A program made the position numbers and the translations under genes. Below are positions 2,313 through 18,711 of a stretch of DNA of 20,000 bases, in pieces; the first letter of the stretch is position 1, and the number at the start of each line of letters is the position of its first letter. The notes beneath the pieces are model-generated. The model was not told the origin of the DNA. It worked only from the letters and a program-made list of their open reading frames with translations, and did no database searches. This DNA is from an uncultured virus (IMG/VR IMGVR_UViG_3300001255_000001) (taxonomy: Duplodnaviria; Heunggongvirae; Uroviricota; Caudoviricetes), in IMG/VR virus record IMGVR_UViG_3300001255_000001, positions 52,297 to 72,296 of that record. One strand, given 5' to 3'.

Positions 2313-5300
2313 TTAAACATAAATCGACCTGCATGTTATTCTTGTAGATGGGTCAGAGCTATAGGCCTGCTCTATGTCCAAAACTATATACTTACCTGCC
2401 GTTTTGCCTGTATCCTCTGTAGAATATACTAAGTTATTAGGATAAGATATTTCGACAATATCTCCTATTTCAAGTATTGGGTTGGGGAAAATATCAAGGG
2501 TCAGAACAATCTGTTGCTTTGACCACTGGGTTCTCATCCATTCAGATAATTTTTTTGCCTCTTCTTCTCTTTGTATCCATGTAGACTCAAAGGCTACTTG
2601 CTCATCATTTTTAGTTGAAGAAAAGTCTGGGTCTATGTACTCAAATGGATCCAGTGTTGTTATTGTTTCTCCGACAACAATAAAGCTTTTTTCTCCTCCG
2701 TCTGCTATATCAACAAATGCTCCTGTGTTATTTAATATGTAGGCATCTATTCCAAACGAGGTTGCATCGTGCCCTATAAGTGTAACGTTTGGATTTAAAA
2801 TTATTTGAGGATATTTAACAAGACCTGGCCTTGTTGAATATTTAGTCGATATTTTTTTTATCTCTCTTGCCACTGGCCCAAATTCTTTTATCCATGGGGC
2901 TTTATAGGAAGATTCGGCACCAGAAAAAACAAAATCTCCAAATAAGTTCTGCAAAGAGTTTGATGCTGAAATATATGAGCCATAGTTATCGTACGAGTTA
3001 GAAGAGTTAAATTCATTTTTAGTTAAAGAAGAGCAGTATGCATAGTCAAAGGCTGCCTCTCCTTCAATTCCAATAAGTGAGATCTTTGAGTTTATTGCTA
3101 TAGGGGATTCATCAGTTGCCGTAATGAGTTGATTATTAAATTTAATTTTAAATATTTTTTTACCAGTTGTGGCCTTAGACACCTTAACGTCTATTCTATA
3201 AAATCTTCCTCCAGAAACTCCAGTAATTGAATTGTCTTCAGCTGTTTGTGTGTCTGTTACTTTTGATTCTTTACCGTCTACAAGTTTCCAAAGTTGCACA
3301 TCTCTGTATCCCAATCCTTTGGTTGCAACGTTCTGTGAAGTTGAAATTTTTAATATGTAGCCATTTAAATTACTAGCGTCCAGCCCTATGCCTAGTGCAG
3401 CAGATACCGCTTGCTCTCCAGTTACTCTTCCAAAAGAATTTCTTGCAAGCTTGAAAAACAATGCTGTTCCTACTGAAAAATATTCTTCTGTAGACATGTT
3501 AACGGTATCTGGAGTAATTGATGCACAATAATATTCTTTAGATGCTGGGGGGACAACAATGTGAAGTAGTGATCTTGACACTTCTACTTCTTTTACTATT
3601 GGGCCCTCTGATTGCTTTTCCTTCTGCTTTAATGTAAATACTGATTGATCTGCAACATTTGTTTTTGCAGAAAGATTTAACCTAGATCCAAACCATTCAT
3701 TTTTTAACTTATCAATCTCTACTTTGTGCTCTTCTCCAACACCAACTCCCTTACCAGTAGCATTGAATGAATTTCTTTCTTTGATTCTATATCTTAGAGT
3801 TGATTTAAAAGAACCCAGTACGCTTTCTCCCAACCACTTTGCTATATCTGAATCAGAAGTTATCCATTTATACTTGATTGTATTTGGCGCAGAAATTGGT
3901 TCATACTGAAATTCAATTGCATCGTATTTAATTATTTCATTATTTATTAAAAAATATCCAGACTTATTATAAAAAGATGTGTCGGCCAAAGAACTGTACA
4001 CGCTTATTGGTGCAAGTGATACCACTCCTAATGGGGTGTCTTCTGTAACAGGTGGTGTTGCTAATAAAGTATTCTGTAAGGCGGCTGCACCAATTGCAGA
4101 AGGTGGAGAGACATAAAGGTTGTCTGAAGAACCAGAGTAGTTTGTACTTATTATTGGTGAGTAAATTACTTTAACTGCTTTAACTGAAGGCACAGTTTCT
4201 TTATTCATAGAAATTATATTAGGCAGATTTAATAATTTTTTTTCGCTTCTAAACTTAAAACTAGCTTCTCTTGTTTTATCAAATAGGTAGTCTCTGGGAT
4301 AGAACTGAAGTATGTCGTTGTTATCAAATGTAGCTATCATTTGAGTGTCTCTGCATAAATCCTGTATATGTTCCCAGACTGTCTTTGTGTCTTCTGTATA
4401 CCAAAATAAAGGGACTATGGTAGCTGTATCGGCTAAGTCTGTGCTATCTTTATTATATGTATTAAAATTATATGAATTAAATCCTATGCCGTCTAATAGC
4501 CTTCTAATAATAGCTTGTGATGGAGCATTTTGAATTACAATATCTGGAGCTAATATTTCTTGTAAAAATTTAGCTCCGTCTAGGCCTTGTATATCAATAT
4601 CTCCAAACTCAGATAACATGAAGGAGTCCATATAAAATACTCCCTGAAAAATCATGTCTGATCCTATTTTATTAAATGGCATTATCTTAACGTTTTTATA
4701 CAAATTAATATTGTTTTTATTAAATGCCAAAGTTTTATCATACTCTACTCCCTTTTTATCAAATCCCTCCAGGGATAATGACAAAGCATTTGCTGTTACT
4801 GATCCTACTGGAACAATTCCAGATGAGTCGTCGGAAGACATTTTTGAAGCCTGAAAAGAAATTACTCTGTCAGAAACATCCTGTATGTATCTTGCTCCTA
4901 TTTCAATAACTCCTAGGTATGAGTTTGCCTTGCTAATTGTGTTTACTGTTACAGTAATGTTCTTAATATCTACTGGAACTGATGGCGTTGTAAATTTTGT
5001 AGTTGACCATGAAGATGGGCTTGACCATAGTCCTCCGTTATAATAAAGTTGAAATACTCCTGTATCACTACTCGATACAACTGTATTTGTAAATATAGTG
5101 GCTTCTACATCCTGATGGTTTTTTATTTTAATTGACCAACTGACTGGCTTTGAGTATGAAGTCTCAAATTTAACAACTATAGTATTTGCTACAGCTGTTT
5201 TTACTACTGGATACTCTACAGTAATATTACAGTTAGGTAGAGAAAGGTTTTCTGCTGGGCCAGCCAAAAAGTATTTATACTGATTCTTTGCACTAGCAAA

Positions 5301-5645
5301 ATAAAGTCTGGAAGGTAGCTCCTTTGAAACATTATATTTTGGTATGGCAACTGGTACCATTTTGTTTAATAAAAAATAGCCTATGCCTGCAGAAGAAGGT
5401 CTTCTTGGATCTATTATATTTGTTAGCGGAAATAGTTTTTTATATGGGTAATATTCTTTTCCAGAAGTAGTAGTTTGTTTTATTTTAAGATCGCCTTCTG
5501 GATTTTCATCGGTTCCATTTGGCCCTCTTACTTTAGCACCTAAAATCAAATCGTTCATATTATATTCTAGCCAGCATCCGCCCGACATTGAATAGGATAC
5601 AGACTGATTAATTAAATTTAAGGTTGATGGGCTTACGGTTTGCAT
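2313..5645 (-). CDS. Large minor tail protein (baseplate hub/Tal-position protein), ~1110 aa
   Basis: Long beta-rich ORF two genes after the TMP. The C-terminus 'FESTWIQREEEAKKLSEWM...FPNPILEIGDIVEISY...YIVLDIEQ' resembles hub/tail-protein C-termini. I moved the start from 5678 to MQTVS at 5645, where the ATG overlaps the upstream TAA. Confidence 0.7.
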   Translation of the reverse strand: MQTVSPSTLNLINQSVSYSMSGGCWLEYNMNDLILGAKVRGPNGTDENPEGDLKIKQTTTSGKEYYPYKKLFPLTNIIDPRRPSSAGIGYFLLNKMVPVAIPKYNVSKELPSRLYFASAKNQYKYFLAGPAENLSLPNCNITVEYPVVKTAVANTIVVKFETSYSKPVSWSIKIKNHQDVEATIFTNTVVSSSDTGVFQLYYNGGLWSSPSSWSTTKFTTPSVPVDIKNITVTVNTISKANSYLGVIEIGARYIQDVSDRVISFQASKMSSDDSSGIVPVGSVTANALSLSLEGFDKKGVEYDKTLAFNKNNINLYKNVKIMPFNKIGSDMIFQGVFYMDSFMLSEFGDIDIQGLDGAKFLQEILAPDIVIQNAPSQAIIRRLLDGIGFNSYNFNTYNKDSTDLADTATIVPLFWYTEDTKTVWEHIQDLCRDTQMIATFDNNDILQFYPRDYLFDKTREASFKFRSEKKLLNLPNIISMNKETVPSVKAVKVIYSPIISTNYSGSSDNLYVSPPSAIGAAALQNTLLATPPVTEDTPLGVVSLAPISVYSSLADTSFYNKSGYFLINNEIIKYDAIEFQYEPISAPNTIKYKWITSDSDIAKWLGESVLGSFKSTLRYRIKERNSFNATGKGVGVGEEHKVEIDKLKNEWFGSRLNLSAKTNVADQSVFTLKQKEKQSEGPIVKEVEVSRSLLHIVVPPASKEYYCASITPDTVNMSTEEYFSVGTALFFKLARNSFGRVTGEQAVSAALGIGLDASNLNGYILKISTSQNVATKGLGYRDVQLWKLVDGKESKVTDTQTAEDNSITGVSGGRFYRIDVKVSKATTGKKIFKIKFNNQLITATDESPIAINSKISLIGIEGEAAFDYAYCSSLTKNEFNSSNSYDNYGSYISASNSLQNLFGDFVFSGAESSYKAPWIKEFGPVAREIKKISTKYSTRPGLVKYPQIILNPNVTLIGHDATSFGIDAYILNNTGAFVDIADGGEKSFIVVGETITTLDPFEYIDPDFSSTKNDEQVAFESTWIQREEEAKKLSEWMRTQWSKQQIVLTLDIFPNPILEIGDIVEISYPNNLVYSTEDTGKTAGKYIVLDIEQAYSSDPSTRITCRSIYV

Positions 5646-6097
5646 TATACTTCTTCCAGTGCGATAGATAGGTCCCAAAATGCTTGTGCAGTGTCCGCCG
5701 CATTTTCTTTAACATTTCTTCTTACCATAGTTGCTGAGCATGAAGTAAATGAGGCAAGGAAAGTTTCTGTTCTTGTAGAATTATATGCAATTTTTACATT
5801 AAATGTGCCTTGTCCATGAGCACTTAAATAAAAGTTTTTTATATCTTCTGCTCCCCAGTATCCATCTACGGTCATAGAGGTGTATGAAGGGACCATGCTC
5901 CAGGAGGTAGAGACTGTCTTCTTATCGGCTATAAACAGCTTTCTAAGGCTTCCATTGGCCATCCTAGAAGTCTTCTCGAACCTTTGTGTTTCTACTACTA
6001 TGGGGCTTCTGTTATGTTCAGTTAATGAATGGAAAACGCCAGCAGCGTCTTGCACAAACAAAGCTGCTCCTGCTGGTAAAACTAAAGCCGTTGCCAT
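5645..6097 (-). CDS. Distal-tail (Dit)-position minor tail protein
   Basis: 150-aa ORF directly after the TMP with TAATG coupling at both ends. Sequence pattern 'RMANGSLRK.....K...S.SW..VP' and ending 'WDLSIALEEV', typical of small Dit-like proteins. The function is assigned mostly from synteny. Confidence 0.6.
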   Translation of the reverse strand: MATALVLPAGAALFVQDAAGVFHSLTEHNRSPIVVETQRFEKTSRMANGSLRKLFIADKKTVSTSWSMVPSYTSMTVDGYWGAEDIKNFYLSAHGQGTFNVKIAYNSTRTETFLASFTSCSATMVRRNVKENAADTAQAFWDLSIALEEV

Positions 6098-9000
6098 TAT
6101 ATATTCTTCCCCTGTCCAACCATTTTAACATTAACCTTAGCCTTTTGTCCAATAACTGCTTCTGCTTTGCGAACAATTATATTGGATAGGGCCTCTACAT
6201 CCATTCCATCAGATGCGTATATGTTTTGGTTAACAGTATAAGATGCTCCAGATGAACCTTCCCCTCTTATGCCAAATGAAGGTCTATCAAAATTATATCT
6301 AGGCATTGCCGCCTCTGGATTAAATGGATTCATTGTAGCAGGTATTATAGACTCATTTTTATGAATCAGAGCTAACATATCTTGTGGAACTACATTAATT
6401 CCATCTTTAAATTTAGGAACATTTAGTTTTCCATTACTAATATATCCGCCTGTAGCAGCGGATGTTGAATTATGTATAGCTGGCCAGATTCCTTCTAGCA
6501 GTGGTTTAAAAGATTTTCCATATTTTTCATACTGCTCTATAAATCTTTCAAGAGTAGAAGGCAAAAATTCATCAAGAACTCCATGGGTTTTTATAAGTTC
6601 TGATTTTGGCAATATATTTTTTAATAGCTTTATACGGTTTTCTGGGTCTAGCGTGGCAACAACGGCATGGAATGTGTCGGAATTTGTTAGCTTTCCGCCA
6701 GTATGAACAATGGTGTCCATTAACCATTTTGGACCACCTTTGCCATTTACGGCAAATGCTTCGTTTAAATATTCTCCCTGGAATAATGATAGCCTGTCTA
6801 TTAACGCTTTGCTAAGCCTTGCTACGCCTGGGACCCTTTCTCCAGCTAGCATATCCCTTGCTTCTTCTCTTGACATTTTTAAAACATCAATAAAATATTT
6901 TTCTACAGCCGCATAACCCTTTTTGTTTTGTGACCATAGAGAAGGAGCTCCGCCTCGCATGTCCCATACCTTTGACATGTCTTCTGGGACTCTAAATAAA
7001 GTTTTCCATAACGATCCGCCTTTTTCTGCATTTTTACCTACTGCATACTCTCTTGCCATTATTTTTTCTACAGTAGCAAATAAATCAAAATTAAATATGT
7101 TTCCGCTTAAAGAAACATTTTTAGAAGATGGAGTTAGTCTATTTAAAAGATCTTCTGGTAAGTTTCCTCCATGATAAAAATCTTGTTTAAAAAGTTCTTC
7201 TAATGAAAGGTCTAGCCCTAGGCCTGTGTCGGCTGTAGTTTTGCTCATATTCATCTTTTTTGCTGATCTTAGTGCTTGAATACTTCCTACGGGGGTATAT
7301 CTGTAAAGAAAATCAGATATCATTTTTGGTGAAAATTTTAAAAGTTTCTGTGAGATATTTTCTTTTGAGAACATTGAAGTTAATTTACCAACTCCATTTT
7401 TTAATGGAGTCATGACTGGGTTTATAAATTTATTTTTCATTGCTGCTGCGGCCTCTCCCAATGCTTGCATGGGATGGAGTTTAGATGGAGGCAAGTTTGT
7501 AAACCAATCATCATCATTTGCAGGCCCTGGTGGAGCACCTGATCCGCTTCGCCTTGGTGGAGGTGGCCTATTAACTATATCTTCAAAATAAGACTTTCCA
7601 GTTGTTGATGTATAGTCAAAAGCATTTTTAAACTTGCGAATTAGACCTTCTGGTTTAAGGCCTATTGCTTTATATAAATTATTTTGAAGTGGCTTTACTT
7701 TACCTAAAGTGTTCCAGGTGACTAATTTTAACAGATCCTTTCCAAGAGACGGTATTTTGCTAAGCGCTCTAATTAAAGGTGCGCCAAGTGAAGATGACTG
7801 TTTTGCTACATTTGCTGTCGGATTTGCAAGTGCCGATCTGGCAGACCCCATTCCAAGAAAGTTGAGTGGGAAAAGTATTGAACTTAGAGTATCTCCTGAT
7901 TCAGCCTGTCCAGCCATTTTTCTTAATATTGATCCAGCACCAAGAGCGTCTGCTTTGTTGTTTGATGTCATGAAAGATGGAAGCATTCCTGCTGCTTCTT
8001 TTTGAGATTTTGTTAGCTCTGATACATATCTTTGGAACCAATTTTGTTTTTCTGGAAGATTTCTTCCGTGCCTATGCCCAACTGGTCCACCCTTGTGGAA
8101 CAACAGTGGGCCAAACCCATATGCACCGTTTCCAGAAAAGCCCATAGAGGCTCCAGATCCTGCTAAACGCATTGGATCTTTATCAATACCCATTCCTGGA
8201 CCACGATATTTACTTGGCTGCTCAGCCATCTGATGCCAGTAATCTGATTGTTGTGGTGTCTTTCCAGTAAATTTAAGTCCTGGAATTTCTGTTCCGCCCC
8301 AGATGTCTTTACCCTTTGAAGGATTGTATCTTAGCTCTCCCCACCTTCCAGTGCGTGGATCTCCAGTTGGCTTTCCGTTGCTCCAGTAATCTGGAAGATC
8401 AGGACGCCATGGGAAAAATGGAAGCTGCTGTTTTTGAGGCTTCTGTTTACCTACTGGGCCACCTTCTGCTCTTCTAAGGGCTTTGTGCAAAGAATCTACG
8501 GCGTCTGGTCCACCAGCTGCATCTACAGCCTTTGCACTAAATACATATTCTCCATCTGAAAGCATTGCTGGAATTGAATCTGATGTTGCGGTACCTGGAC
8601 CAGATACTTTTCCGCCTTCATGTAAAGCGGGGCCCTTTGGAGCTGGCCCAGTCCAAATTGGAGTTCCGCCAGTAGTATTTTGTCTATATCTTTGGCCATC
8701 AACTATAAATGTTTCTCCTGGCTGAAGGTCAAGTCTCTTTCTAATAGCGTCACGAGCTTGTGCATTCAGAACTTGTACTTTTTTGCCATCATACTCTTTA
8801 GTTTCTTTGCTGTCAGAATAATCACCAGTTACCTTAATGTTTTCTCTTAGTGCAGGTTTTCCATTTATTCCCTTGACTGCATCAACAACATCTTTTAGAG
8901 TTGCTCCGTCACCTAATGCTTTTACAAGAGCCGTATTTACTCCTGTAGCAGCACCAGATTTTGCTAGAAGCTCTAATGCGTTTTCATATGGGGCAATTGG

Positions 9001-12000
9001 AACCTTTTCTGTAACCAACATGCTGCCATTATAATATGTTCTTTCTTTATACTTTGGCATCGCTGCGCCAGTAGCAGCTTGCATTGCAGCTACAAATCCA
9101 GCAGACGCTTCTTTATTTTTCTTTGCGTAAGCCTCAACCGTTAATCCTGCTGCTGCAGCATTTCCATATAAAGCAGTCATAGAATCATTTACTTTTTTAA
9201 TTGCTGCTTGTTGCTTATCGTATCTATCTTTTAACTTATCTAAACTTTCTGCAGCAATTGCTGCTGCGTCTCCAAGCTTTTCTTGCTTGTTTGAAATAGC
9301 ATCGGCGGCGGCCTTTAAAGGCTTAATTGCGGCTTCGGCAGCGGTATCTATTGCCTTCATCTGGGCATCTGTTTGCTGCTGTGAAGTTAGTGACTCTAAA
9401 TCAATTCTTAGACTTTGTGCCTTTTCCGTATCTCCGACTGCCTCTGCATTTTGTATCTCAAGTCTAACCTTTTCAATTTGTCTTCCAAGGTTTGCGTCCT
9501 CTTGTGCGGCAGATAATGCTTTCTTTCTTGCCTCTGCAAGCTTATTTATAGCCTCTATTTGTTTATTAAGTGCTTTTAGTCTATCTCTATCAGATATTTG
9601 TTCTGCAACTGATTGTCCCTTAAGAGCTTTTGTATAATTCTTAATTTGCTTTTCTAGTTTATCAAGTGATGCGTACTGATCTTTTAATATTCCAACTCTG
9701 TTTTTTGCAACCACAGCATCAGATATTGCTGCAAACGAATCTGCAATAAGCTTTGTTTGAGCAGCATTTAATTGAGAAAGATCTCCATTAAATCCTTGGG
9801 CCTGTAATCTAATCTTTTGCCATACGCTTACTACAGTATCAGATCCATTAATCATCTTCTTTACTTCTGGATTTGCTTTTGCCATTTCATCAACTGTTTC
9901 TTGAGTAATGGCTGTGCGAGCCTCGCCAGACCTGTTAATTTTGTCTAGCATTATCTTTTCGGCTTCTGCGTATGTTAGAAGCTCTTTTTTACCACTTACA
10001 TCTTTTGCTACTTCTCTTGCTCTCTTGGCCATCAAATCATTTATAGCAGTTTCAGTTGCAGTCAAAGCTGTGTTTAGTGACATAGCTCTTTCTTTGCTGC
10101 CCTGATCTCTTGTGTCCGCTCCAAAACTTGTTACAGCAGAAACTGCAGCACTTTGTGGATCTGTAATATTTTTAAACTTTGCATTACCAATTGTTGCAGT
10201 AATTGATTGATCTTTTTTATTTGAAAGCTGAAGCATGGTGAAAACCTTTTTAGTTGCTTCATCTGCAGACATGCCAGCTGCAATTAAAGACTCTTTAATT
10301 CTACGAACAGCATCTGGAACTTTTTCTGAAGGCTGTCTATCTAGAACTGCTATTTGCTCTGCAAATGTTTCTTTGACTTCCTTCTTAAGCTTTTTATACT
10401 CTGCAATTGTCATCTGGAATGGGGTTCCGCCATCCTTCATACTTTCATATACAAGCTTATTTGCAGCAGCTAGATCTTCTGAGTCCTGAATAGTATCTTT
10501 TATCTTTGACCCGAAATCAGTAAATCTAAGACCAGCTTTTTTAGCAGCCTCTGCGGTTAAACCAAAACTTTGTATGTTAAGTTCTTGTCCTCGTTTATAG
10601 TGTCCCCACATTTTGTATGCAGCATATCCTGCTGCAGCAACTGCAGCTAATGGCGCAACCAAGCCTGCTACTCCAGCGGCTGTTGCTGCAAGTCCTGCTT
10701 TTACAGCTCCTGCTGCAACTGCTTTACCAGCCATTGATGTAACTAATTTTCCAGCGCCTTGCATAATAGCTGGACCAGCCATCGACCCAACCATTGAGCC
10801 CATCATCATTCCATTTTGTCCACCAACAGCATTTCCTATTGCTCCACCTGCTGCCATTCCGCCGATTGTTCCAACTAGCATTCCGCCAGCGCCACTACCA
10901 AAAGGTCTATCTGGATCTGCTCCCATTCCCTTGCTCTTTAGGAATTGCAATGGGTGCATCATTGCTGCAGTTGTATATTTTGCATTTGTTGAAAATGCTG
11001 TGCCTGCTCGTTTTGCTTTGCTTACACCTGAATCTTCTCCGAACGCAGCTGGTCCATATGATTGCCCAACTCCAGCTGCGAGTGAGCCAGGAACACCATA
11101 TGCTAATATTTGAGATCCGCCAGGGCTGTAAGTAGAAGTAAATCTTCTTACTGTCGAAGCAATTGAAGTTGAAGCTGCTGTAGATGTTGTTTTAATTGAT
11201 GTTCCAAGTTTTTGAATACTTCCAGTTAATGCCATCATTGATGAATTAATTTCTGAGCCCATCATTCTGGCTCTAACAACTAATTTGTCGGATGAAATCT
11301 TTAGCCTACTAGCAATAGATCCTATTGCAGAATCTATAGCCTGGTTTGCTCTTTGAAGAGGCACTGATGGGACATAAGGCAATGATCCTTGAATAGTTGG
11401 AACGTTTGTTCTTACCCCTCCATTTCCAATTATTGTTGTTGTTCCAACAGATAGTGGGCCAGGCTTAGGTGGTGTTCCAACAACTGGCATTGGAGTTCTA
11501 GATGCAGCAAGGTTATTTAAATAGAGCTGTCCCATAGCTCTTTGGCTTGGGTCTCCTGATTTTAAAAGACGCTTTGCATGCTCTTTAGATGTAATCTGAC
11601 TAACATCAGTAATCTTTTCACCATAAAAATCTTTACTTCGCTTAATTAATCCACCAAGTGCAAACTGTGGGATTATGTTGCCGCTTTGTAGCGGACTAAA
11701 TATTTCTGGACCCTTTTCTCCAACTAAATAACTTTGACCTGGAGATACTGGTCCGCCCATTTCTCTTTCTCCGTCAATGCCGAATATCTTTTTCTTAAGC
11801 TCAGCTGTGATTGGAGTATCTTTTTTAGAGTCCCAATTTAAATATCTTCTTTTAAGTATGTCTCTATCAATTGGTGACAGCTGCTTAAAAGCAGATCTGT
11901 CTGAAATTAAGTCGCTTGCGGCTTTTCTAATAACAGCATCTAGTGAACTTGGCTCAAGCGCATTTCTTAAAGATCCGTCTGGACCCTTAACATATCCGTA

Positions 12001-15000
12001 AGGCTTTTCTTTAGCTAATGCTGCAGCGAATTTGTCATATAGAAGTTTTTGTGAATACGGTCTTAGTCCAGTACTTGCAAATAAAGTCTCTGCTGCTTTA
12101 ATAGATAAAGAGCTAACTCCCCATGGAGCTGACTCATACATGCTAGGCTTTGGTGCACCTGTTGGCCCAAACCCTGCACCAATTCTTCTCATTGCTAATG
12201 ACTTTAGAACATTTATTATTCCTCCGCCATTAAATCCATTAAGCGGAGTTTTAAATGAATTGTCGCTAAGAGATATAGCATGACCTCTCTGGCGTATTCT
12301 TAGCTCTGCTTCGTCTTTTAATTTCTTTAATGCTGCTGGTGTTAGTGCTTTAGGAGGAGAAACTTTTACAGCAGAGTGAATTCCATGAAACTCTTCCCAA
12401 TTTACTCTTCTTCCTTCCTCTAATCTTTTTATCATTGCAGCATAAACTGCTGCCTCTGTTGGATTTAGGTCGCCAAACTTAGCAATTGTTTCTTTTAGTT
12501 TTGGAAGTACTTCATCAATTTCATCAATCATTTTTTGATGATACTGTTGTGGCGTCATGCCTTTTGGAATATTAAGAGTTGCTTCTGCAAAGAATCTCTT
12601 AGCTCCGCCTTTTACTCCAAGTAAATTGATCCGTGCCATCTCTTGCATAGACGGCATTTTGTCGATCCATTCTCCATCTTTCCATTCTCCATGGAATCTT
12701 CTCTTTCCAGAAGCTCTATCGTATACTCCATCTGTTCCTGTATCATTAACGTTTCTTCCAGATATGTTGTCTCTACTTAAATCTTTATCTCCTCTTAGGT
12801 TGGCAGCAACCAATTGTTTAAAGTAAGCTTTTTCATCAAACACCCCACTTTGAGTAGCAAAGGCTTTATCGTAAGGAGATTCAAGAACAATAAGTTTTCT
12901 TCTGCCAGCTGGATCTGTAGGGTCAATCATTGTTCTAATTTCTTGTGTAGGAGAGTGCATTTCATGCCCACCCCTTACAATCATTGTCGCACGTTGTTGT
13001 GAAAGGGCTGCGTCTTCATCCATTACTGGCTTAACAAATACTTTTGATCCGTCTGGCTTTATATATACTCCACCAATTCCTTCTACTGGGAAACTATGTC
13101 CAGTTGTAGGAGTATCAAGCTTACCGAAATTAGTTGGTGGCATTGTTGAATATTTACCAGTTCTAACTCCAGCATCAATTTCTTCCATAGTAAGTCTAGC
13201 TTGTCTTTGTTTTTCTACCTGCTTAATACTTCTAGGCATTCCGAGGAATAATCTTCCGTAGTTAAACTTTCCAGGCTTTACTTTTCCTCCGACAATTCCG
13301 CCTGAATTTTTTCTCTCTACTACATTTCTTTGTAATTCTTTTAGTTTCGCAGCAGATCCTCCTGCTGAAACTATACTTGAATCAATAAGCGGTATAAATG
13401 AATCAAAGGTTATGTCTCCCTTTTCATCTCCAATTTTCTTTGACTCTTTGCCCCTAAGAATAGCTTTAATCTTTTGGTCAATTTCTTTTTCTGTATCTGC
13501 CCATTTTTCTTGAGGAACTCCAGATTTACGCATCAGCCTATCGTACTTGCCAGTTCGACCCATGTTTCTATCTAAAAAGTCTTTAGCTAAAAGTGTGCCT
13601 TGGTTTGCCTGCAAGTTAGATTGAGCGTCATAGTCAACAGTGTATTTGCTAACATATCTCTTTCCATTTATTACAACCGCTCTTGTTAAATGTGTTGCAT
13701 GTATAATCTTGTTAAGGTCAAGAGGAGGTAATTCATTCTCAGCTAGTTTTTTAGCTAGTGCTCCTTTATTAGACTCTAGGTGTCCTGCTTCTATTGCAAA
13801 TGCGTCCCTTCCTCTTGGTGCACCTCTTTCAGCAGCTTTTTTTGTAGTTTCTATAGAAGCAGAAAATTCTTCTATAACTTTTGCTGCTTTTCTTCTTTCA
13901 GATGGAGATAATGATCTCATGTAGTCATCTATAGCTGCATTTGTTGATGCGCCTCTAGTGACCCAAGTTCTTCCTCCATATGATCCTATAATTTGCGTAT
14001 CTCTTCCACGTGGATCTAGTCTTGTTTTATTTTTTTGCTCTGCAAGTTCAGCTACTCGTTTTCTATATTCAGATATCTTATCTTTAAAAAGTGGTCTTAT
14101 AGTAAGTGCAGGAACTCCATAACTAGATCTAGACAGCTTAATTTTTCCTCCAGCTGCATGCTGTGGAAGAGGAACTCCATTATTTGCTGCATCTACTGCT
14201 CTGAAAAGTTCTGGGTTATCTTGAATGCCTGGACCAAATACTGTTTCTTTTGGTGTAAGTAAAGCAGTTATGTTGCTTCCAGAATTATCATATGTAGATG
14301 GTGCAGCTGCAACCAGTGGAGCATTTCTTGGATCCATTGATGCAGATTGGTTTAATACATATCCTCCTAGTGGAACATCTCCCATTCTGTCATCATATGT
14401 TATAGATGCTGGACCAGTAACCTGAGTTTTATTTGGGCCAAACGATTCTATTTTTCCGCCAGTATTAAATCTAGGCTTTGTTGTATGAATACTATATCCA
14501 GCACCAGAAGTTCTAACTCCCAAACCTCTTGCAATTGCATCCACCATTTTTGCAGTTTCTGTTTTGTGGAAAAGCTCTTTCATATTAGACTTTCCAGTTG
14601 CGCTTACAACTGGCTGGCTAGTTAATGGTACTGTAGTTAAGCTAATAGTTCTTGCTTGAGCGGCGGCAACACCTTGTGCTGTTTGAACCATCATTGCTTC
14701 AACCTGAGCATTTAATGCAAATATTTTAGCTCTTGCGGCTTCTACAGTAATCTTTCCAGCCTGCAGTTGTTGAACTATCAATGCTGTTTCATCTGCAGCA
14801 AGGGTAGTTATTCTTGTCATTTGTGGTAGAAGTGCCTGGTAAGAATCTGCAAGCGATGCTGTTATTGTTCCTGTTGCAGCAACTTCTGTCTTAAGTATTG
14901 CTAATTCTGCCTTTGATTGCATAGCAATTGCTGCAGTCATTGAGTGCCACTTGGCAGCTTCTGATGCAACTATTCCATTAGAAACTCCATTGACTGCAGT

Positions 15001-17175
15001 AACTCCATGAATTCTTGGAAGATCCTCGTGCATATATGTTTGTGGTGAATTTGAAAGTCTTAGATTTACTGGCTTAGGACCAGGAACTGTAGAGAATATT
15101 GTTTCATCTGCTCTTTGTTGAGGAGTCTTAGATCCAGTTGGTATAACATGTGACATGTCTCTTGAGTATGGCCTACCTACAAGAGGATTGTCTTTGTCTA
15201 CAATTCTTCCGCCGCCCGAAAGCACTGTGCTTCCTCCAACTGTAGAAATTCCATTGGATGTCGCAACTGTTGCGCTCATAGCACTTGCTTTTAATCTATC
15301 AAATGAGGCTGCTAAAGTAAGTACTGCATCTGAGAATGTAGCAGCCGCCTTAGTATCGCTATAGAATGACTGCTCTACAGTTTTAGCAGCAGCAGATGCT
15401 GCCATTAATTCTGGTGTTAATAATTTAAATCCAGTTCCGCCCTTACCAATATTTTTAAGAGCTAATACTCCCTTAATTATGTATCCAAAGAAGTTTGCAA
15501 GCACACCAGTAAGCATGATGATAGGACCAGCAATTGCTGTAAGCCCGCCAATAAATCCTAGTACTGCTTTAATTGGTGCTGGTAGATTCCCAATAAACTT
15601 TAAAATGCCATCAATAGCATTTAATACAAATGCACCAATTTTTAAGAACTGATCTCCAACTACAGCCAGTTCTGCCTTAACAGATTCGAGTGCTCTTCTG
15701 TATTTACCAGATGCAGACTCTGTAAGCGCTGTTAATTCTCGTGCTGAAATTGCAGCTAAGTCTTGTGTACTTGCTTTCATCAAGTCTAAGACTTGAAGAG
15801 TCTGGCTTCCTTCTTTACCTAAGTTTTCGAATAAAGCATTTATTCTAGCAAACTGGAACTTTCCAAATAGCTGCTCAATTGCTCTTGCTCTTTGTAATGG
15901 CTCAAGTGAATCTAATGAATCCTTTAATGCCATTATTGTGCCAGTTAAATTTCCAGCATTTTTATTTACAATGCCAGATAAGTCTATGCCAAACCCCATG
16001 AACATTTCTTTTGCAACCTTTGTGGGGTTGATAACAGATGCTAAAGCAGACTTTAATGCGTTAGCACCTTCTGATGCATTAATTCCACCTTCACGCATAG
16101 CAGTTAAATAAAGTGCAAGGTCTTGTACATCTCCGCCCAAAGCCTGAACAACTGGTCCTGCTTTTGGAATAGCAGTTACTAAGTCATCTAGAGTAGTAGA
16201 CGTCTGGTTTTCAACTGCGTTCAAGAAGTCAATAGACTCAGCAAGCTCCATCGTATTTTGACCGAAGGCTGTCTGAATTGCAAGTGTGGCCTTCATGGCT
16301 TCTTGTCTATCTACTTCACCAAGAATTGCAAGTCTAGTTGTTTGTCTTGTAGAGTCTATAAGATCTGCGCCTTGTTTTCCAGTTGCAGCAATATCTGCTG
16401 CTAAAGCGATAGTCTCTGTAAAGTTTGCTCCTAGTCCAGAAGCTAATTCTCTAGAAACTGCCATAACATCTTTGCGAACTTGAAGAAGATCAGCGCTTGA
16501 TGTTGCAGTTAATCCTCCGTAAACTTTTGTTAAGCGAGTTAATTCTTGATCTGCTTCTTTAAATGCTTTTGCTGCAGCCATACCAAATGCTGCTAAAGGA
16601 ACTGTAAGACCAACTGTTAGCTGTCTACCAGCCCACTGTGTATTCTTACCCCAGTTAATTAGCTGATTAGATCCATCCATCATAACCTTATTCATGATGG
16701 CTAGCTCTTGTCTTAGAAGCGCTGACTTATTCTTTGTAACGTCTAGTCCAGATTGAACCATTACGTTGTATTGCATTAATCCTTGTGCATTTTTACCAAT
16801 AGGCTGAATTATTGCATTCTCAAGCATAACCTGCTGCTTGGCTAAATCTCTAACTAGTGAGCTAGTCTTTTGTGTATGACCTTGCCAAGTTCTAAAGTAT
16901 TGGCCAAGCTTCATTCTTCCGCTATCTAGGTTTTGACCAAACTTAGATACGTCTGAAGTTAATGTTACAAAGTGTCTAGAGAACTGACCAGTGGAGCGCA
17001 TGGTTTCGTCAAACTGACGATTCATGACTCCAACCTGGCTAGTCAGATTCTTATTTAAACCAATTGTTGTAGCTTGGAGTTTTAAGAGTTGCTGAGTAAC
17101 CGCTTGTAACTGCGCTGTTAGGCTAGAAAAATTAGCCGTCGCAGTTATGTTGGTTACTATATTTTGATCTGCCAA
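6097..17175 (-). CDS. Giant multidomain tape measure protein (3692 aa) with inserted kinase-like and ADP-ribosyltransferase-like domains
   Basis: TTG start with AAGGAG 6 nt upstream, directly after the chaperone pair. A TP901-type tape-measure core lies at ~15680-16580 (GLTVPLAAFG...AIPKAGP...GANALKSAL...IEQLFGK). Hydrophobic segments lie at ~15457-15576 and ~10606-10899, and a coiled coil at ~9180-9680. C-terminal 'GG..GPG...DSIPAMLS.GEYV' motifs are typical of TMPs. Confidence 0.93.
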   Translation of the reverse strand: MADQNIVTNITATANFSSLTAQLQAVTQQLLKLQATTIGLNKNLTSQVGVMNRQFDETMRSTGQFSRHFVTLTSDVSKFGQNLDSGRMKLGQYFRTWQGHTQKTSSLVRDLAKQQVMLENAIIQPIGKNAQGLMQYNVMVQSGLDVTKNKSALLRQELAIMNKVMMDGSNQLINWGKNTQWAGRQLTVGLTVPLAAFGMAAAKAFKEADQELTRLTKVYGGLTATSSADLLQVRKDVMAVSRELASGLGANFTETIALAADIAATGKQGADLIDSTRQTTRLAILGEVDRQEAMKATLAIQTAFGQNTMELAESIDFLNAVENQTSTTLDDLVTAIPKAGPVVQALGGDVQDLALYLTAMREGGINASEGANALKSALASVINPTKVAKEMFMGFGIDLSGIVNKNAGNLTGTIMALKDSLDSLEPLQRARAIEQLFGKFQFARINALFENLGKEGSQTLQVLDLMKASTQDLAAISARELTALTESASGKYRRALESVKAELAVVGDQFLKIGAFVLNAIDGILKFIGNLPAPIKAVLGFIGGLTAIAGPIIMLTGVLANFFGYIIKGVLALKNIGKGGTGFKLLTPELMAASAAAKTVEQSFYSDTKAAATFSDAVLTLAASFDRLKASAMSATVATSNGISTVGGSTVLSGGGRIVDKDNPLVGRPYSRDMSHVIPTGSKTPQQRADETIFSTVPGPKPVNLRLSNSPQTYMHEDLPRIHGVTAVNGVSNGIVASEAAKWHSMTAAIAMQSKAELAILKTEVAATGTITASLADSYQALLPQMTRITTLAADETALIVQQLQAGKITVEAARAKIFALNAQVEAMMVQTAQGVAAAQARTISLTTVPLTSQPVVSATGKSNMKELFHKTETAKMVDAIARGLGVRTSGAGYSIHTTKPRFNTGGKIESFGPNKTQVTGPASITYDDRMGDVPLGGYVLNQSASMDPRNAPLVAAAPSTYDNSGSNITALLTPKETVFGPGIQDNPELFRAVDAANNGVPLPQHAAGGKIKLSRSSYGVPALTIRPLFKDKISEYRKRVAELAEQKNKTRLDPRGRDTQIIGSYGGRTWVTRGASTNAAIDDYMRSLSPSERRKAAKVIEEFSASIETTKKAAERGAPRGRDAFAIEAGHLESNKGALAKKLAENELPPLDLNKIIHATHLTRAVVINGKRYVSKYTVDYDAQSNLQANQGTLLAKDFLDRNMGRTGKYDRLMRKSGVPQEKWADTEKEIDQKIKAILRGKESKKIGDEKGDITFDSFIPLIDSSIVSAGGSAAKLKELQRNVVERKNSGGIVGGKVKPGKFNYGRLFLGMPRSIKQVEKQRQARLTMEEIDAGVRTGKYSTMPPTNFGKLDTPTTGHSFPVEGIGGVYIKPDGSKVFVKPVMDEDAALSQQRATMIVRGGHEMHSPTQEIRTMIDPTDPAGRRKLIVLESPYDKAFATQSGVFDEKAYFKQLVAANLRGDKDLSRDNISGRNVNDTGTDGVYDRASGKRRFHGEWKDGEWIDKMPSMQEMARINLLGVKGGAKRFFAEATLNIPKGMTPQQYHQKMIDEIDEVLPKLKETIAKFGDLNPTEAAVYAAMIKRLEEGRRVNWEEFHGIHSAVKVSPPKALTPAALKKLKDEAELRIRQRGHAISLSDNSFKTPLNGFNGGGIINVLKSLAMRRIGAGFGPTGAPKPSMYESAPWGVSSLSIKAAETLFASTGLRPYSQKLLYDKFAAALAKEKPYGYVKGPDGSLRNALEPSSLDAVIRKAASDLISDRSAFKQLSPIDRDILKRRYLNWDSKKDTPITAELKKKIFGIDGEREMGGPVSPGQSYLVGEKGPEIFSPLQSGNIIPQFALGGLIKRSKDFYGEKITDVSQITSKEHAKRLLKSGDPSQRAMGQLYLNNLAASRTPMPVVGTPPKPGPLSVGTTTIIGNGGVRTNVPTIQGSLPYVPSVPLQRANQAIDSAIGSIASRLKISSDKLVVRARMMGSEINSSMMALTGSIQKLGTSIKTTSTAASTSIASTVRRFTSTYSPGGSQILAYGVPGSLAAGVGQSYGPAAFGEDSGVSKAKRAGTAFSTNAKYTTAAMMHPLQFLKSKGMGADPDRPFGSGAGGMLVGTIGGMAAGGAIGNAVGGQNGMMMGSMVGSMAGPAIMQGAGKLVTSMAGKAVAAGAVKAGLAATAAGVAGLVAPLAAVAAAGYAAYKMWGHYKRGQELNIQSFGLTAEAAKKAGLRFTDFGSKIKDTIQDSEDLAAANKLVYESMKDGGTPFQMTIAEYKKLKKEVKETFAEQIAVLDRQPSEKVPDAVRRIKESLIAAGMSADEATKKVFTMLQLSNKKDQSITATIGNAKFKNITDPQSAAVSAVTSFGADTRDQGSKERAMSLNTALTATETAINDLMAKRAREVAKDVSGKKELLTYAEAEKIMLDKINRSGEARTAITQETVDEMAKANPEVKKMINGSDTVVSVWQKIRLQAQGFNGDLSQLNAAQTKLIADSFAAISDAVVAKNRVGILKDQYASLDKLEKQIKNYTKALKGQSVAEQISDRDRLKALNKQIEAINKLAEARKKALSAAQEDANLGRQIEKVRLEIQNAEAVGDTEKAQSLRIDLESLTSQQQTDAQMKAIDTAAEAAIKPLKAAADAISNKQEKLGDAAAIAAESLDKLKDRYDKQQAAIKKVNDSMTALYGNAAAAGLTVEAYAKKNKEASAGFVAAMQAATGAAMPKYKERTYYNGSMLVTEKVPIAPYENALELLAKSGAATGVNTALVKALGDGATLKDVVDAVKGINGKPALRENIKVTGDYSDSKETKEYDGKKVQVLNAQARDAIRKRLDLQPGETFIVDGQRYRQNTTGGTPIWTGPAPKGPALHEGGKVSGPGTATSDSIPAMLSDGEYVFSAKAVDAAGGPDAVDSLHKALRRAEGGPVGKQKPQKQQLPFFPWRPDLPDYWSNGKPTGDPRTGRWGELRYNPSKGKDIWGGTEIPGLKFTGKTPQQSDYWHQMAEQPSKYRGPGMGIDKDPMRLAGSGASMGFSGNGAYGFGPLLFHKGGPVGHRHGRNLPEKQNWFQRYVSELTKSQKEAAGMLPSFMTSNNKADALGAGSILRKMAGQAESGDTLSSILFPLNFLGMGSARSALANPTANVAKQSSSLGAPLIRALSKIPSLGKDLLKLVTWNTLGKVKPLQNNLYKAIGLKPEGLIRKFKNAFDYTSTTGKSYFEDIVNRPPPPRRSGSGAPPGPANDDDWFTNLPPSKLHPMQALGEAAAAMKNKFINPVMTPLKNGVGKLTSMFSKENISQKLLKFSPKMISDFLYRYTPVGSIQALRSAKKMNMSKTTADTGLGLDLSLEELFKQDFYHGGNLPEDLLNRLTPSSKNVSLSGNIFNFDLFATVEKIMAREYAVGKNAEKGGSLWKTLFRVPEDMSKVWDMRGGAPSLWSQNKKGYAAVEKYFIDVLKMSREEARDMLAGERVPGVARLSKALIDRLSLFQGEYLNEAFAVNGKGGPKWLMDTIVHTGGKLTNSDTFHAVVATLDPENRIKLLKNILPKSELIKTHGVLDEFLPSTLERFIEQYEKYGKSFKPLLEGIWPAIHNSTSAATGGYISNGKLNVPKFKDGINVVPQDMLALIHKNESIIPATMNPFNPEAAMPRYNFDRPSFGIRGEGSSGASYTVNQNIYASDGMDVEALSNIIVRKAEAVIGQKAKVNVKMVGQGKNI

Positions 17176-17178
17176 CTC

Positions 17179-17556
17179 TTACTCCTTTTTGTATCCGAGG
17201 CCAGCTCCGATACCAAATCCTGCGTCTGATGCAAACTGACCTTGTAGCGAAACAACATCTGATGCATCTGCAGTAATTCCAAGTGCTTTTCTTTTTACAT
17301 CTTCAAAGCTCTTGGGTCTTTCTTCTTCGCCGCCATCAAGGTCTACACCTTGTATTGCAGCTAAGAACTTTCTTTTTTCTGACTCAGACTTTTGCATAGA
17401 TGTAAAAGTTTGAATCAGTTCTGGCATTGAAAGATTATCTTCCAATTCCTCGTAATTCTTATAGTTTCCTATTAGAAATACTTCTCCTTCTAAGGCAGCT
17501 AGATCTAGTTCTGACCAGCTAGAACCGCTGCTGCTAGCAAATTTGGATCGTCCATC
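17179..17556 (-). CDS. Tail assembly chaperone, downstream (T) frame; probably expressed as a G-T fusion by -1 frameshift
   Basis: The frame is open from 17556, well upstream of the track's TTG at 17445, and reads SKFASSSGSSWSELDLAALEGEVFLIGNYKNYEELEDNLSMPEL. It overlaps the end of the G ORF in the -1 frame and lies immediately before the TMP. Confidence 0.8.
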   Translation of the reverse strand, partial: DGRSKFASSSGSSWSELDLAALEGEVFLIGNYKNYEELEDNLSMPELIQTFTSMQKSESEKRKFLAAIQGVDLDGGEEERPKSFEDVKRKALGITADASDVVSLQGQFASDAGFGIGAGLGYKKE

Positions 17557-17837
17557 TTAATGCCGCCGCATACTTCAAGGATACGATTAATTGTTGGTAC
17601 ATCTAATACGTCCTCGAATGCGTCTCTATCTGCAACTAATTCTGGAAGCTGCTTTTCTAGTGCTACTGCACAAGCATCAATAAGAATTGTTAAAGTTTCA
17701 TCTTCTGTAGTTACTTCTGCTGTCTTACTAATAGCAGCCATAAACTTTCTAAGCTCTTTAATTGTTAAAGGCTTTAGCTTTACGTTTGCCCCGTTTTGTA
17801 GCTGAATTTCTTCTACATCATATACTGTTGTTGCCAA
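17505..17837 (-). CDS. Tail assembly chaperone (lambda gpG-like position)
   Basis: 110-aa acidic ORF between the major tail gene and the TMP. TTG start with AGGAGG upstream; motifs 'LKPLTIKELRKFM' and 'LDVPTINRILEVCGGIKMDDPN'. Confidence 0.85.
   Translation of the reverse strand: MATTVYDVEEIQLQNGANVKLKPLTIKELRKFMAAISKTAEVTTEDETLTILIDACAVALEKQLPELVADRDAFEDVLDVPTINRILEVCGGIKMDDPNLLAAAVLAGQN
17538..17544 (-). other. -1 programmed ribosomal frameshift slippery heptamer A AAT TTG
   Basis: Fits the X XXY YYZ pattern in the G reading frame (CCA AAT TTG). It lies inside the ~50-nt stretch (17508-17556) where both the G and -1 frames are open. Confidence 0.7.
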
Positions 17838-17946: not shown

Positions 17947-18711
17947 TTATACTGCTAGAACGCGGTCTACGATGAAACCATATTCTTGGCCGACCTTTGC
18001 GCCGTCTGGTAGCAAACGGAATGTAACTGGGAATGTTGATGCTGCGTTACGAGCCAAAGAGAACTGTGACTGTTGTACAGAAAGAACACGACGTGCATAG
18101 TATACACGCTCAGTTAGAGTTGCTTCAGATGTTGGTGCCTGACCTACTGCAATAAGTTGACGCTCTGTTGGCTGCTCACCAAGAGCTCCACCTGCAAGTC
18201 CAAGCTTGTCCTCTGCTGCTAAACCAGTAGCAACAGTCTGTCCTGTCATCTTAGGTACTAATGTGCTTGAACGCTGACCGAATACTGCTAGAACGTTCTC
18301 AAGAGTACCTTCTGCCATTTCTGTTGCGATCATAACTTCCATTGACTCCTTGAAAAGCTTTGCTGTATCAAGAAGCTGATCTACTGTTACTGAACCGTAT
18401 GATGGGTTGTATGTAACCTGAAGACCGTTATTTGTAAAACCTACGTTGCGATAAAATGCACCCTTGTCATCAAGAGCTGGTGCTGTTGCGCCAGTTGCTG
18501 ATGTTGCTACATCTACTGCATTCAAAGAATCAATGTATGATGTTGCTGACTTAAATGCTGGTACTGTCTTGTTCTTGTTTGCTGCAAAAGCATTAAGAAC
18601 TCCTGCTTCAGCATTTGGGACGTAATCTGAATCGGTAACATCTGTCACTGAAAGAAACAGTGGTGATGCACCAACAAGTATGTTTTTTGCATTACCTGTA
18701 ATTTGTGCCAT
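17947..18711 (-). CDS. Major tail (tube) protein
   Basis: 254 aa with GGAGG upstream and its own promoter and terminator. Motifs 'NILVGA..LF', 'VGFTNNGLQVTY.P.Y..VTVDQLLD..KLFK..M...IAT..AE.TLEN' and 'FPVTFRLLP' are typical of siphovirus tube proteins. It is followed by the chaperones and TMP. Confidence 0.88.
   Translation of the reverse strand: MAQITGNAKNILVGASPLFLSVTDVTDSDYVPNAEAGVLNAFAANKNKTVPAFKSATSYIDSLNAVDVATSATGATAPALDDKGAFYRNVGFTNNGLQVTYNPSYGSVTVDQLLDTAKLFKESMEVMIATEMAEGTLENVLAVFGQRSSTLVPKMTGQTVATGLAAEDKLGLAGGALGEQPTERQLIAVGQAPTSEATLTERVYYARRVLSVQQSQFSLARNAASTFPVTFRLLPDGAKVGQEYGFIVDRVLAV

Follow-up and report, generated by a model that had tools for sequence, protein, structure and literature searches.

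Motif-bounded, exchangeable modules in a freshwater phage's tape measure protein, including a predicted kinase and a likely ADP-ribosyltransferase

The tape measure gene and its surroundings

The window, by which we mean the whole 20,000-nucleotide stretch of DNA analysed here, is part of a 72,296-base phage contig. It contains a tape measure protein (TMP) gene (6097..17175, minus strand), a single open reading frame with a TTG start that encodes 3,692 amino acids and no cysteine. Two TMP family domains scored above their cut-offs, PF10145 at aa 243-438 (89.2 bits against 33.2) and TIGR01760 at aa 192-547 (89.7 bits against 28.8). The gene comes after the tail tube and chaperone genes and before the tail-tip genes, an arrangement shared with Streptomyces phage Tomas, which is also the best cultured match of the protein (38% over aa 157-638). 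On one side are a likely tail assembly chaperone gene (110 aa) and the next gene (88 aa) (together 17179..17837, minus strand; synteny with Tomas genes 61-62), followed by the major tail protein gene (17947..18711, minus strand; PHROG label and position as in Tomas). Directly downstream of the TMP gene are a 150-aa gene and the gene of a 1,121-aa minor tail protein (2313..6097, minus strand; ORF list, PHROG and Tomas synteny). The product of the 3,692-aa reading frame is a bona fide siphophage TMP. Its stop codon overlaps the start of a conserved tail gene, and no small immunity-type gene was seen between the TMP and the downstream tail genes. In this the locus differs from polymorphic toxins with immunity genes, which have theirs adjacent.

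The contig carries a whiB gene (PF02467, 40.9 bits), which was used as a marker of actinobacterial phages in PMC6802176. On this basis, the host is probably a freshwater actinobacterium. All 24 of the listed runs that contain the phage were freshwater or lake metagenomes, and none of them was an RNA dataset.

A protein of this kind could be a product of misassembly, as the sequence-only reading of this DNA had cautioned. The full reading frame was recovered at 99.97% in three other IMG/VR contigs. Of four runs compared with the gene, two were flagged as possible sources. In run X16, which carried no such flag, five contigs with 0 differences cover the gene except for two small gaps and bridge all of the insert junctions, with no one contig covering the whole gene. 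An assembly chimera was thus ruled out.

Several other genes of the phage were recorded in passing. We observed a subtilase (Peptidase_S8) with an apparent signal peptide (L144:1397-2569, minus strand), a CHAP-domain protein (L144:5601-6230, minus strand) and a 185-aa gene with a Met-Thr start and no Pfam match (L144:3125-3682, minus strand; genome positions 23125-23682). The product of the last gene presumably resembles proteasome-beta/Ntn peptidases and would be a speculative candidate for a TMP-processing protease. A cluster of small genes (G000:C1:10329-22569) seemed by eye to encode proteins of redox and hydroxylase types, namely a peroxiredoxin, AhpD, a glutathione peroxidase, a thioredoxin and 2OG-Fe oxygenases; ROS-defence genes in lake phages were described in PMC6802176.

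Scaffold, variable zones and the boundary motif

We collected relatives by scanning 26 of the 64 parts of IMG/VR with aa 1-600 of the TMP. There were 565 confirmed relatives, of which the best 80 were taken; 51 of these had a complete reading frame of more than 2,000 aa, and the 29 partial or broken rows were left out. An estimated 1,500 or so such stretches exist in IMG/VR. The 51 complete relatives, which include the query's own twin and some other redundant rows, ranged from 2,090 to 3,819 aa. Three regions (aa 1-650, 651-905 and 2093-2480) were kept in all of them. All variation lay in two zones, A (aa ~903-2090) and B (aa ~2850-3575), which flank a Gly/Ala-rich uncharged stretch and a helical core. 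Membrane-type hydrophobic stretches were found at aa 537-573 and ~2091-2195, with Kyte-Doolittle peaks of just 1.5-1.7. As some relatives of ~2,100 aa have few or no recognised cassettes, no cassette is essential.

From the N-terminus, with every part on the minus strand, the protein begins with a conserved scaffold (aa 1-902; 14470..17175; 51/51) that contains PF10145 and the uncharged hydrophobic stretch at aa 537-573. Zone A is opened by joint domain 1, which comprises two tandem copies (aa 903-1005; 14161..14469). It continues with insert 1, a predicted folded alpha/beta module (aa 1006-1288; 13312..14160; 6/51) with invariant H1159, T1161, H1162 and N1187, with insert 2, which has a predicted atypical kinase fold (aa 1289-1647; 12235..13311; 18/51), and with the small, mostly helical insert 3 (aa 1648-1803; 11767..12234; 21/51). 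Joint domain 2 (aa 1804-1837; 11665..11766), which also occurs in the TMPs of unrelated cultured phages, is followed by a sixth, fast-diverging segment (aa 1838-2090; 10906..11664; 9/51). The central scaffold (8626..10905) consists of the Gly/Ala-rich uncharged stretch (aa ~2091-2195), an Ala-rich core and a more variable end; its aa 2093-2480 are those present in 51/51.

Zone B starts with joint domain 3 (aa 2851-2901; 8473..8625) and insert 4, which is rich in Gly, Pro and aromatic residues (aa 2902-3025; 8101..8472; 4/51). Insert 5 (aa 3026-3572) is made up of a ~290-aa leader and a ~250-aa ART-like domain, which moved as one in the comparisons made. The leader, insert 5a (aa 3026-3320; 7216..8100; 2/51), has a conserved basic start and a helical or low-complexity spacer, and insert 5b (aa 3321-3572; 6460..7215; 2/51) is a likely ADP-ribosyltransferase-fold domain. 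Joint domain 4 and the C-terminal anchor (aa 3573-3692; 6100..6459) complete the protein. The five inserts described in the sequence-only reading were thus located where it had placed them, and its expectation that inserts vary while flanks are conserved was borne out (scaffold 51/51, inserts 2-21/51). Plain helical TMP repeats, which it had named as the result that would count against it, were rejected for inserts 1-3, since their models, in which pLDDT was often over 70, were either mixed alpha/beta or compact.

The boundaries share the motif F/Y/H/R-x-x-G-G-x-[V/I]. The inserts had been proposed to be bracketed by GG motifs. They are indeed motif-bounded, but only about ten of the 41 GG dipeptides in the TMP are boundaries, and cutting the protein at every GG would break the kinase and the ART-like domain. 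In 66 non-redundant long reading frames, we counted 242 motif matches against 24.9 ± 4.8 in 100 shuffles, a roughly tenfold enrichment that comes from a partly circular test, since the pattern was derived from the very sequences tested. There were nine matches in the first 880 aa and 222 in the remainder. The query TMP alone had four matches, against a mean of 0.52 and a maximum of five in 2,000 shuffles. By eye, no DNA-level recombination site was seen at the motifs, and the DNA of the motif was not conserved beyond codon needs, which points to selection on the peptide. We also observed that the C-termini of five relatives (L024, L052, L076, P0014 and P0018) carry 4-6 tandem GG-motif peptides, 9-27 aa apart and free of modules, like empty slots.

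Small joint domains (35-100 aa) were placed after the motif at three positions (aa 903, 2851 and 3585) by hmm matches, with a profile that already contained the first two as rows; the joint domain at aa 1804 was seen by eye and through a PHROG match. Joint domain 3 is homologous to parts of the TMPs in PDB 8rk3 (aa 1020-1067; E 2.4e-6) and 8zdo (two copies; E 5.9e-24), the two TMPs matched by the best-conserved form of the joint. In the passages of PMC11445458 that concern the phage JBD30 TMP (8rk3), aa 1022-1066 form a predicted hook beside a proposed cut at 1066. Both the hook and the cut are predictions, for a segment to which joint domain 3 is homologous. Those two TMPs have one or two copies of the joint, whereas here there are four, each of which opens or closes a cassette zone. 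In the Tomas TMP, joint-like stretches (aa ~1636-1697 and 2011-2058) enclose a C-terminal M23 peptidase.

Pairs of relatives revealed where modules had been exchanged. Compared with relative L090, the query DNA was 95% identical up to aa 3039, unrelated up to aa 3584 and then 91% identical. At the position of insert 5, L090 has a different 496-aa module (L090:16043-17530) with R-S-E-type ART-like motifs recognised by eye. Compared with L084, identity was 90% over aa 3027-3620, starting at a motif, and 63-73% elsewhere. This sequence pattern suggests that the insert-5 block has passed between distant scaffolds. L024 and L076 were 98% identical until aa 2785, with similarity resuming at 3620, and L018 and L020 had breaks at 2532-2673 and 2751-3655. 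Eight of the ten swap ends in these four pairs were no more than 12 aa from a motif, and ~9% of the positions in the variable part of the query would qualify. The two ends off the motif were 3620 (31 aa past it) and 2532. Homologous recombination by itself would be expected to place swap ends at a conserved motif.

Modules have also changed order and zone. In P0013, inserts 5 and 4 are reversed, and in L087, the insert-2 kinase sits in zone B. On a quick tree of 46 scaffolds, cassettes were patchy even inside one tight clade. The order in zone A seemed to follow a simple grammar, in which one variable module is followed by either the kinase (19/46) or an R-S-E-like module (9/46), never both, and then by insert 3; shared ancestry may explain part of this exclusivity. 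The earlier suggestion that the inserts are swappable thus gained support from the swap ends at the GG motif and from the patchy presence of the cassettes.

Enzyme-like modules

We modelled aa 1006-1845 from 22 sequences. The mean pLDDT was 64.8, and the kinase part was mostly at 80-95. The closest structure to insert 2 was CotH (5jda; Z 11.0, rmsd 4.1, 216 aligned), followed by neighbours such as MavQ (Z 9.8), CtkA (9.1), PI4KIIalpha (9.1) and HipA (8.6); with Fam20 included, these families spanned Z 8.4-9.8 against the model. Kinases filled the hit lists, and 45 kinase rows preceded the first non-kinase. Foldseek also listed kinases alone, although weakly (best E 0.011). PI3K/PI4K-type kinases ranked 2, 4 and 5 among the neighbours, but the Z gaps among kinase families were too small to name a substrate. 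K1382, D1463, D1465, N1470 and D1478 were invariant in 20/20 insert-2 rows at 46-75% identity. From the kinase motif, we take these residues to be the catalytic Lys, the catalytic-loop Asp and Asn and the metal-binding Asp. The alphaC position 1393 is Gln in this copy and Glu in the other 19 of the 20 rows. Insert 2 is therefore predicted, from its model, to have an atypical kinase fold of the CotH/HipA/PI4K type, in line with the kinase-like character noticed earlier. It shares with CotH/HipA/CtkA/PI4KII-type kinases the predicted fold and the catalytic K, D-x-D...N and D, and it differs from them in its low identity (8-12%) and in being embedded in a TMP. There was no Pfam match to Kinase-PolyVal.

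The evidence for insert 5b is a chain of sequence comparisons. Nine proteins were recovered when 1.84 billion representatives were searched, and the seven strong matches were all TMPs or pieces of TMPs. The insert-5b profile also reached P0027, a 1,914-aa protein that is not a TMP (E 0.027 database-wide), and both halves of the insert aligned collinearly with it (P0027 aa 465-538 and 615-683). This region of P0027 is ART-PolyVal by Pfam (PF18760, 38.8 bits against 31.2). The atlas lead for insert 5b was also ART-PolyVal, with a score of 0.87, below 0.9. Another cassette family found in TMPs, which has an H-Y motif, also matched (E 9e-5). The triad positions of insert 5b are H3335, F3366 and H3503; there is a His where H-Y-E enzymes have Glu, and P0027 shares this terminal His. 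The putative ART residues were invariant in 8/8 rows, down to 32% identity. Insert 5b itself had no direct match to PF18760 in Pfam at E<=0.05, searching PDB sequences with the alignments of the ART-like and H...N modules produced nothing beyond chance matches, and the zone-B model (pLDDT 35.9, best Z 4.6) was too poor for an informative fold search. We conclude that insert 5b is likely an ADP-ribosyltransferase-fold domain, weakly linked to ART-PolyVal. The insert that had earlier been called ART-like probably is so, by way of the collinear link to P0027.

None of the inserts in the window had a match above cut-off in Pfam, PHROGs, NCBIfam or PADLOC, nor was there a PADLOC anti-defence match better than E 0.05. 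A zincin-like processing metallopeptidase in the TMP was not found with Pfam or NCBIfam. For inserts 1, 3 and 4, no enzyme identity passed a test. Insert 1 is predicted to be folded in part, with a hairpin and a helix in the model, and H1159, H1162 and N1187 were kept in 7/7 rows. By eye, we take its H...N motif to recall His-Me finger nucleases. Insert 1 had no family match, no atlas match and no stand-alone homolog among 8,000 candidates. The nuclease reading gained no support from a profile comparison with the other H...N cassette family, which did not align with insert 1 (probability 0.5%). Other first-slot modules (L002:4577-5449, L023:8228-9025 and relatives; alignment A10) have a near-invariant R-x-H...N, which to our eye presumably recalls His-Me nucleases too. 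Similar His motifs were seen in many unrelated first-slot families.

In the 66 reading frames, the modules formed 42 clusters, most of them without a family match. Among 67 modules that we scanned, relatives contributed two with OmpA-family peptidoglycan-binding domains and one with CHAP and LysM (the three at L037:16244-16852, L084:7256-7864 and L052:10167-10931), and an APH/ABC1-like kinase fell below the cut-off. A further 27 modules yielded one GNAT slightly below the cut-off. Cell-wall modules were in zone B alone (5/5). These OmpA and CHAP-LysM cassettes indicate that the cargo is not solely for host takeover. The R-S-E ART-like modules occupy the kinase slot in 9/46 TMPs, never alongside the kinase (L024:13715-14542 and relatives; alignment A8), and their motifs were recognised by eye in L090 and seven other rows. 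For these modules, searches of Pfam, PHROG, PDB and phages were all empty, and a tblastn comparison of three ART-like cassettes with cultured phages yielded no usable match. In distant TMPs, we observed a GNAT-like module (L137:11357-11839) and a weak match to LPD3, a polyvalent-protein domain (L131:10714-13443).

The conservation of the putative active sites bears on whether the modules are enzymes at all. The cassettes might be tolerated passengers, or spacers for length or adhesion, with the enzyme folds as relics and selection acting on tail length or envelope crossing. The lack of a universal cassette, the three inserts without an enzyme signal, the low complexity of inserts 4 and 5a and the lost alphaC Glu in this kinase copy would agree with this explanation. 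However, the kinase residues are invariant down to 46% identity and the putative ART residues down to 32% (8/8 rows), and one slot holds either the kinase (19 of 46) or the R-S-E-like module (9 of 46) and never both, even if ancestry may explain part of this. We consider passengers or spacers unlikely.

The direction of the enzymes can also be questioned. PMC6802176 found VIP2-like ARTs in 24 freshwater phages, some of them predicted to be actinobacterial, and proposed an anti-grazer role. By extension, the ARTs and kinases here would be a 'Trojan horse' against flagellate grazers that swallow infected cells or virions, rather than act on the bacterial host; the eukaryote-directed effector kinases MavQ and CtkA are among the top structural neighbours of insert 2. 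But CotH and HipA, which act in bacteria, score equally high, no binding or translocation module was seen, the location inside a DNA-delivery protein points to the bacterial cell, and the published ARTs were not traceable to TMPs, with 'tape measure' occurring 0 times in the main text and eight supplements of that paper. A role against grazers thus seems very improbable. We give even slightly less credence to the idea that all of the modules serve envelope penetration by remodelling the wall or membrane where injection takes place; the kinase would then be tethered to the TMP channel and have a membrane lipid, for instance phosphatidylinositol, as its substrate. Phosphatidylinositol is made by Actinobacteria, PI3K/PI4K-type kinases hold ranks 2, 4 and 5, and relatives have OmpA, CHAP-LysM and M23 modules in the same zone. 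Against this, ART-like modules depend on NAD+ and commonly have proteins or nucleic acids as their targets, and the kinase-family Z differences are too small to name a substrate.

Possible delivery from the tail and comparison with known systems

We regard as fairly probable that the TMP carries motif-bounded, exchangeable modules which are released at injection, and that the predicted kinase and the likely ART then refold and modify the host before phage gene expression. The sequence-only reading, in which the TMP doubles as a carrier of swappable host-takeover or anti-defence enzymes, is partly supported. The modules would be stored unfolded in the tail lumen. It is established that siphophage TMPs occupy the tail as trimers and leave it with the C-terminus ahead; the T5 TMP has a muralytic C-terminal piece that is cut, retained in the tail and expelled first (PMC10038345). 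If this TMP also exits C-terminus first, zone B would leave before zone A, bringing cell-wall modules (in relatives) as well as ARTs and kinases, and zone A would follow with one H...N module, next either a kinase or an ART-like module of the R-S-E type, and finally insert 3. Because zone B holds ARTs and kinases too, the zones do not map neatly onto compartments. The modules might be released into the host envelope and cytoplasm and refold there, after which the predicted kinase and the likely ART would modify host molecules ahead of phage gene expression. The motif and joints might be protein-level hinges or cut sites that double as crossover points. For cutting at the motif itself, we would put the chance at somewhat below even. 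The modules could alternatively remain tethered to a membrane-inserted TMP, as has been proposed for the polymerase of phage P23-45; the sections of PMC10770324 on this TMP-fused RNA polymerase describe it as active and full-length in virions.

Tail length offers a comparison. Published figures give 0.155-0.165 nm per residue for JBD30 (1,158 aa, 180 nm), for Katyusha (a 9,084-bp TMP gene, 3,027 aa, tail about 500 nm; PMC4919401) and for P23-45 (5,002 aa, 800 nm). As enzyme-bearing TMPs have ~0.16 nm per residue, enzyme residues appear to count as length. From this analogy, we infer a tail of 570-610 nm with the cassettes stored unfolded, and the 550 nm calculated in the sequence-only reading is plausibly no paradox, since TMPs with enzyme domains keep ~0.16 nm per residue. 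Tails of cluster-BE phages are 328-365 nm (PMC12509530, PMC13191466), and the TMP of Tomas has 2,094 aa. Sister phages that are 700 residues apart would be predicted to differ by ~110 nm in the tail.

Cysteine was almost absent, with 0 in the 3,692-aa TMP and 3 in 132,665 aa of the 51 TMPs. The cassettes had 3 in 41,959 aa, compared with 36 in 4,322 aa of non-virion enzymes, as expected if cassettes are under TMP constraints. However, several other virion proteins of this phage are also Cys-poor (9 in 3,101 aa), so the signal is not specific to the tail lumen.

These data also bear on whether the modules travel in the tail. Assembly might include their excision at the motif, and they would have another site of action: they could be packed into the head, or be active at a late stage in the cell that produces the phage, with co-infecting phages as one conceivable target. 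In that case, the TMP gene would be an expression vehicle for a polyprotein, and the mature ruler would be short. The TMPs of T5 and lambda are proteolytically matured (PMC10038345), a subtilase is encoded in the genome, and the motif is conserved in protein and not beyond the codon level in DNA. On the other hand, the T5 piece is retained by the tail, gp96 of P23-45 occurs at full length in virions (PMC10770324), enzyme-bearing TMPs keep ~0.16 nm per residue (3,027 aa for about 500 nm in PMC4919401), and the cassettes are as Cys-poor as the TMP. We therefore judge excision to be improbable, and prefer release of the modules at injection.

A broader form of the preferred reading is more doubtful. 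The tail lumen of long-tailed phages of freshwater actinobacteria might serve as a magazine, with TMPs cut at F/Y-x-x-G-G, injected before the DNA and re-armed by recombination; we hold this only tentatively. The slots of such a polyprotein would contain a nuclease-like module, a kinase or ART and a small module in that order, with wall enzymes and more ARTs or kinases at the tip. If it were true, tail length would be a by-product of effector load, and there would be a distinct and widespread effector-delivery system of siphophages with dozens of uncharacterised anti-host or anti-defence domains. Siphophages have hitherto been thought poorly equipped for protein injection (PMC9503650), and NAD+/ADPr systems were found in 16% of siphoviruses versus 60% of myoviruses and tied to head packaging in the same paper. 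If TMPs carry exchangeable enzymes, abundant lake phages would have an overlooked route to host manipulation before expression. The motif would be a simple rule for mining new effector domains, and the cultured phage Tomas is a ready test system and possibly a means of loading proteins into tails.

Enzyme-bearing TMPs and polyvalent proteins are already known, each separately. In the literature surveyed, with Ghai et al. 2017 and Iyer 2017 supplements outside its scope, we found no description of multi-slot, motif-bounded cassette exchange in TMPs, and neither the main text of PMC5512222 nor that of PMC9503650 contains the word 'tape'. The present analysis contributes a count of breakpoints, a grammar of slots, a link between insert 5b and ART-PolyVal, a constraint on Cys and a cultured phage for tests. 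Gp96 of Thermus phage P23-45, as the gp96 passages of PMC10770324 present it, is likewise a giant TMP (5,002 aa) with a non-muralytic enzyme, and some relatives lack the fusion. It has one fixed N-terminal enzyme of proven activity, whereas the TMP studied here has multiple internal slots, many alternative modules and exchange that is motif-bounded, and the activities are predicted. T5 pb2 (PMC10038345), Katyusha (PMC4919401) and Tomas gp63 also have an enzyme domain that lies inside the ruler, close to the C-terminus. Among cultured phages, the closest relative is Tomas, with a common gene order and joint-like stretches around its M23 peptidase. Unlike these muralytic TMPs, the TMP studied here has no recognisable wall hydrolase; its modules are kinase-like and ART-like, and some lie between the two hydrophobic stretches.

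The polyvalent proteins of Iyer et al. 2017, as outlined in the general description in PMC5512222, unite disparate predicted enzymes (ART, kinase, GNAT and peptidoglycan hydrolases) in one mosaic polypeptide of the virion region. The TMP resembles them in its predicted kinase fold, in a weaker link to ART-PolyVal, in its setting among virion genes and in being mosaic between relatives. It differs from them in that the carrier is a TMP, and in the C-lobe of its kinase: Kinase-PolyVal is truncated and has lost the whole C-terminal subdomain, whereas the model of insert 2 keeps a helical C-lobe that aligns with CotH.
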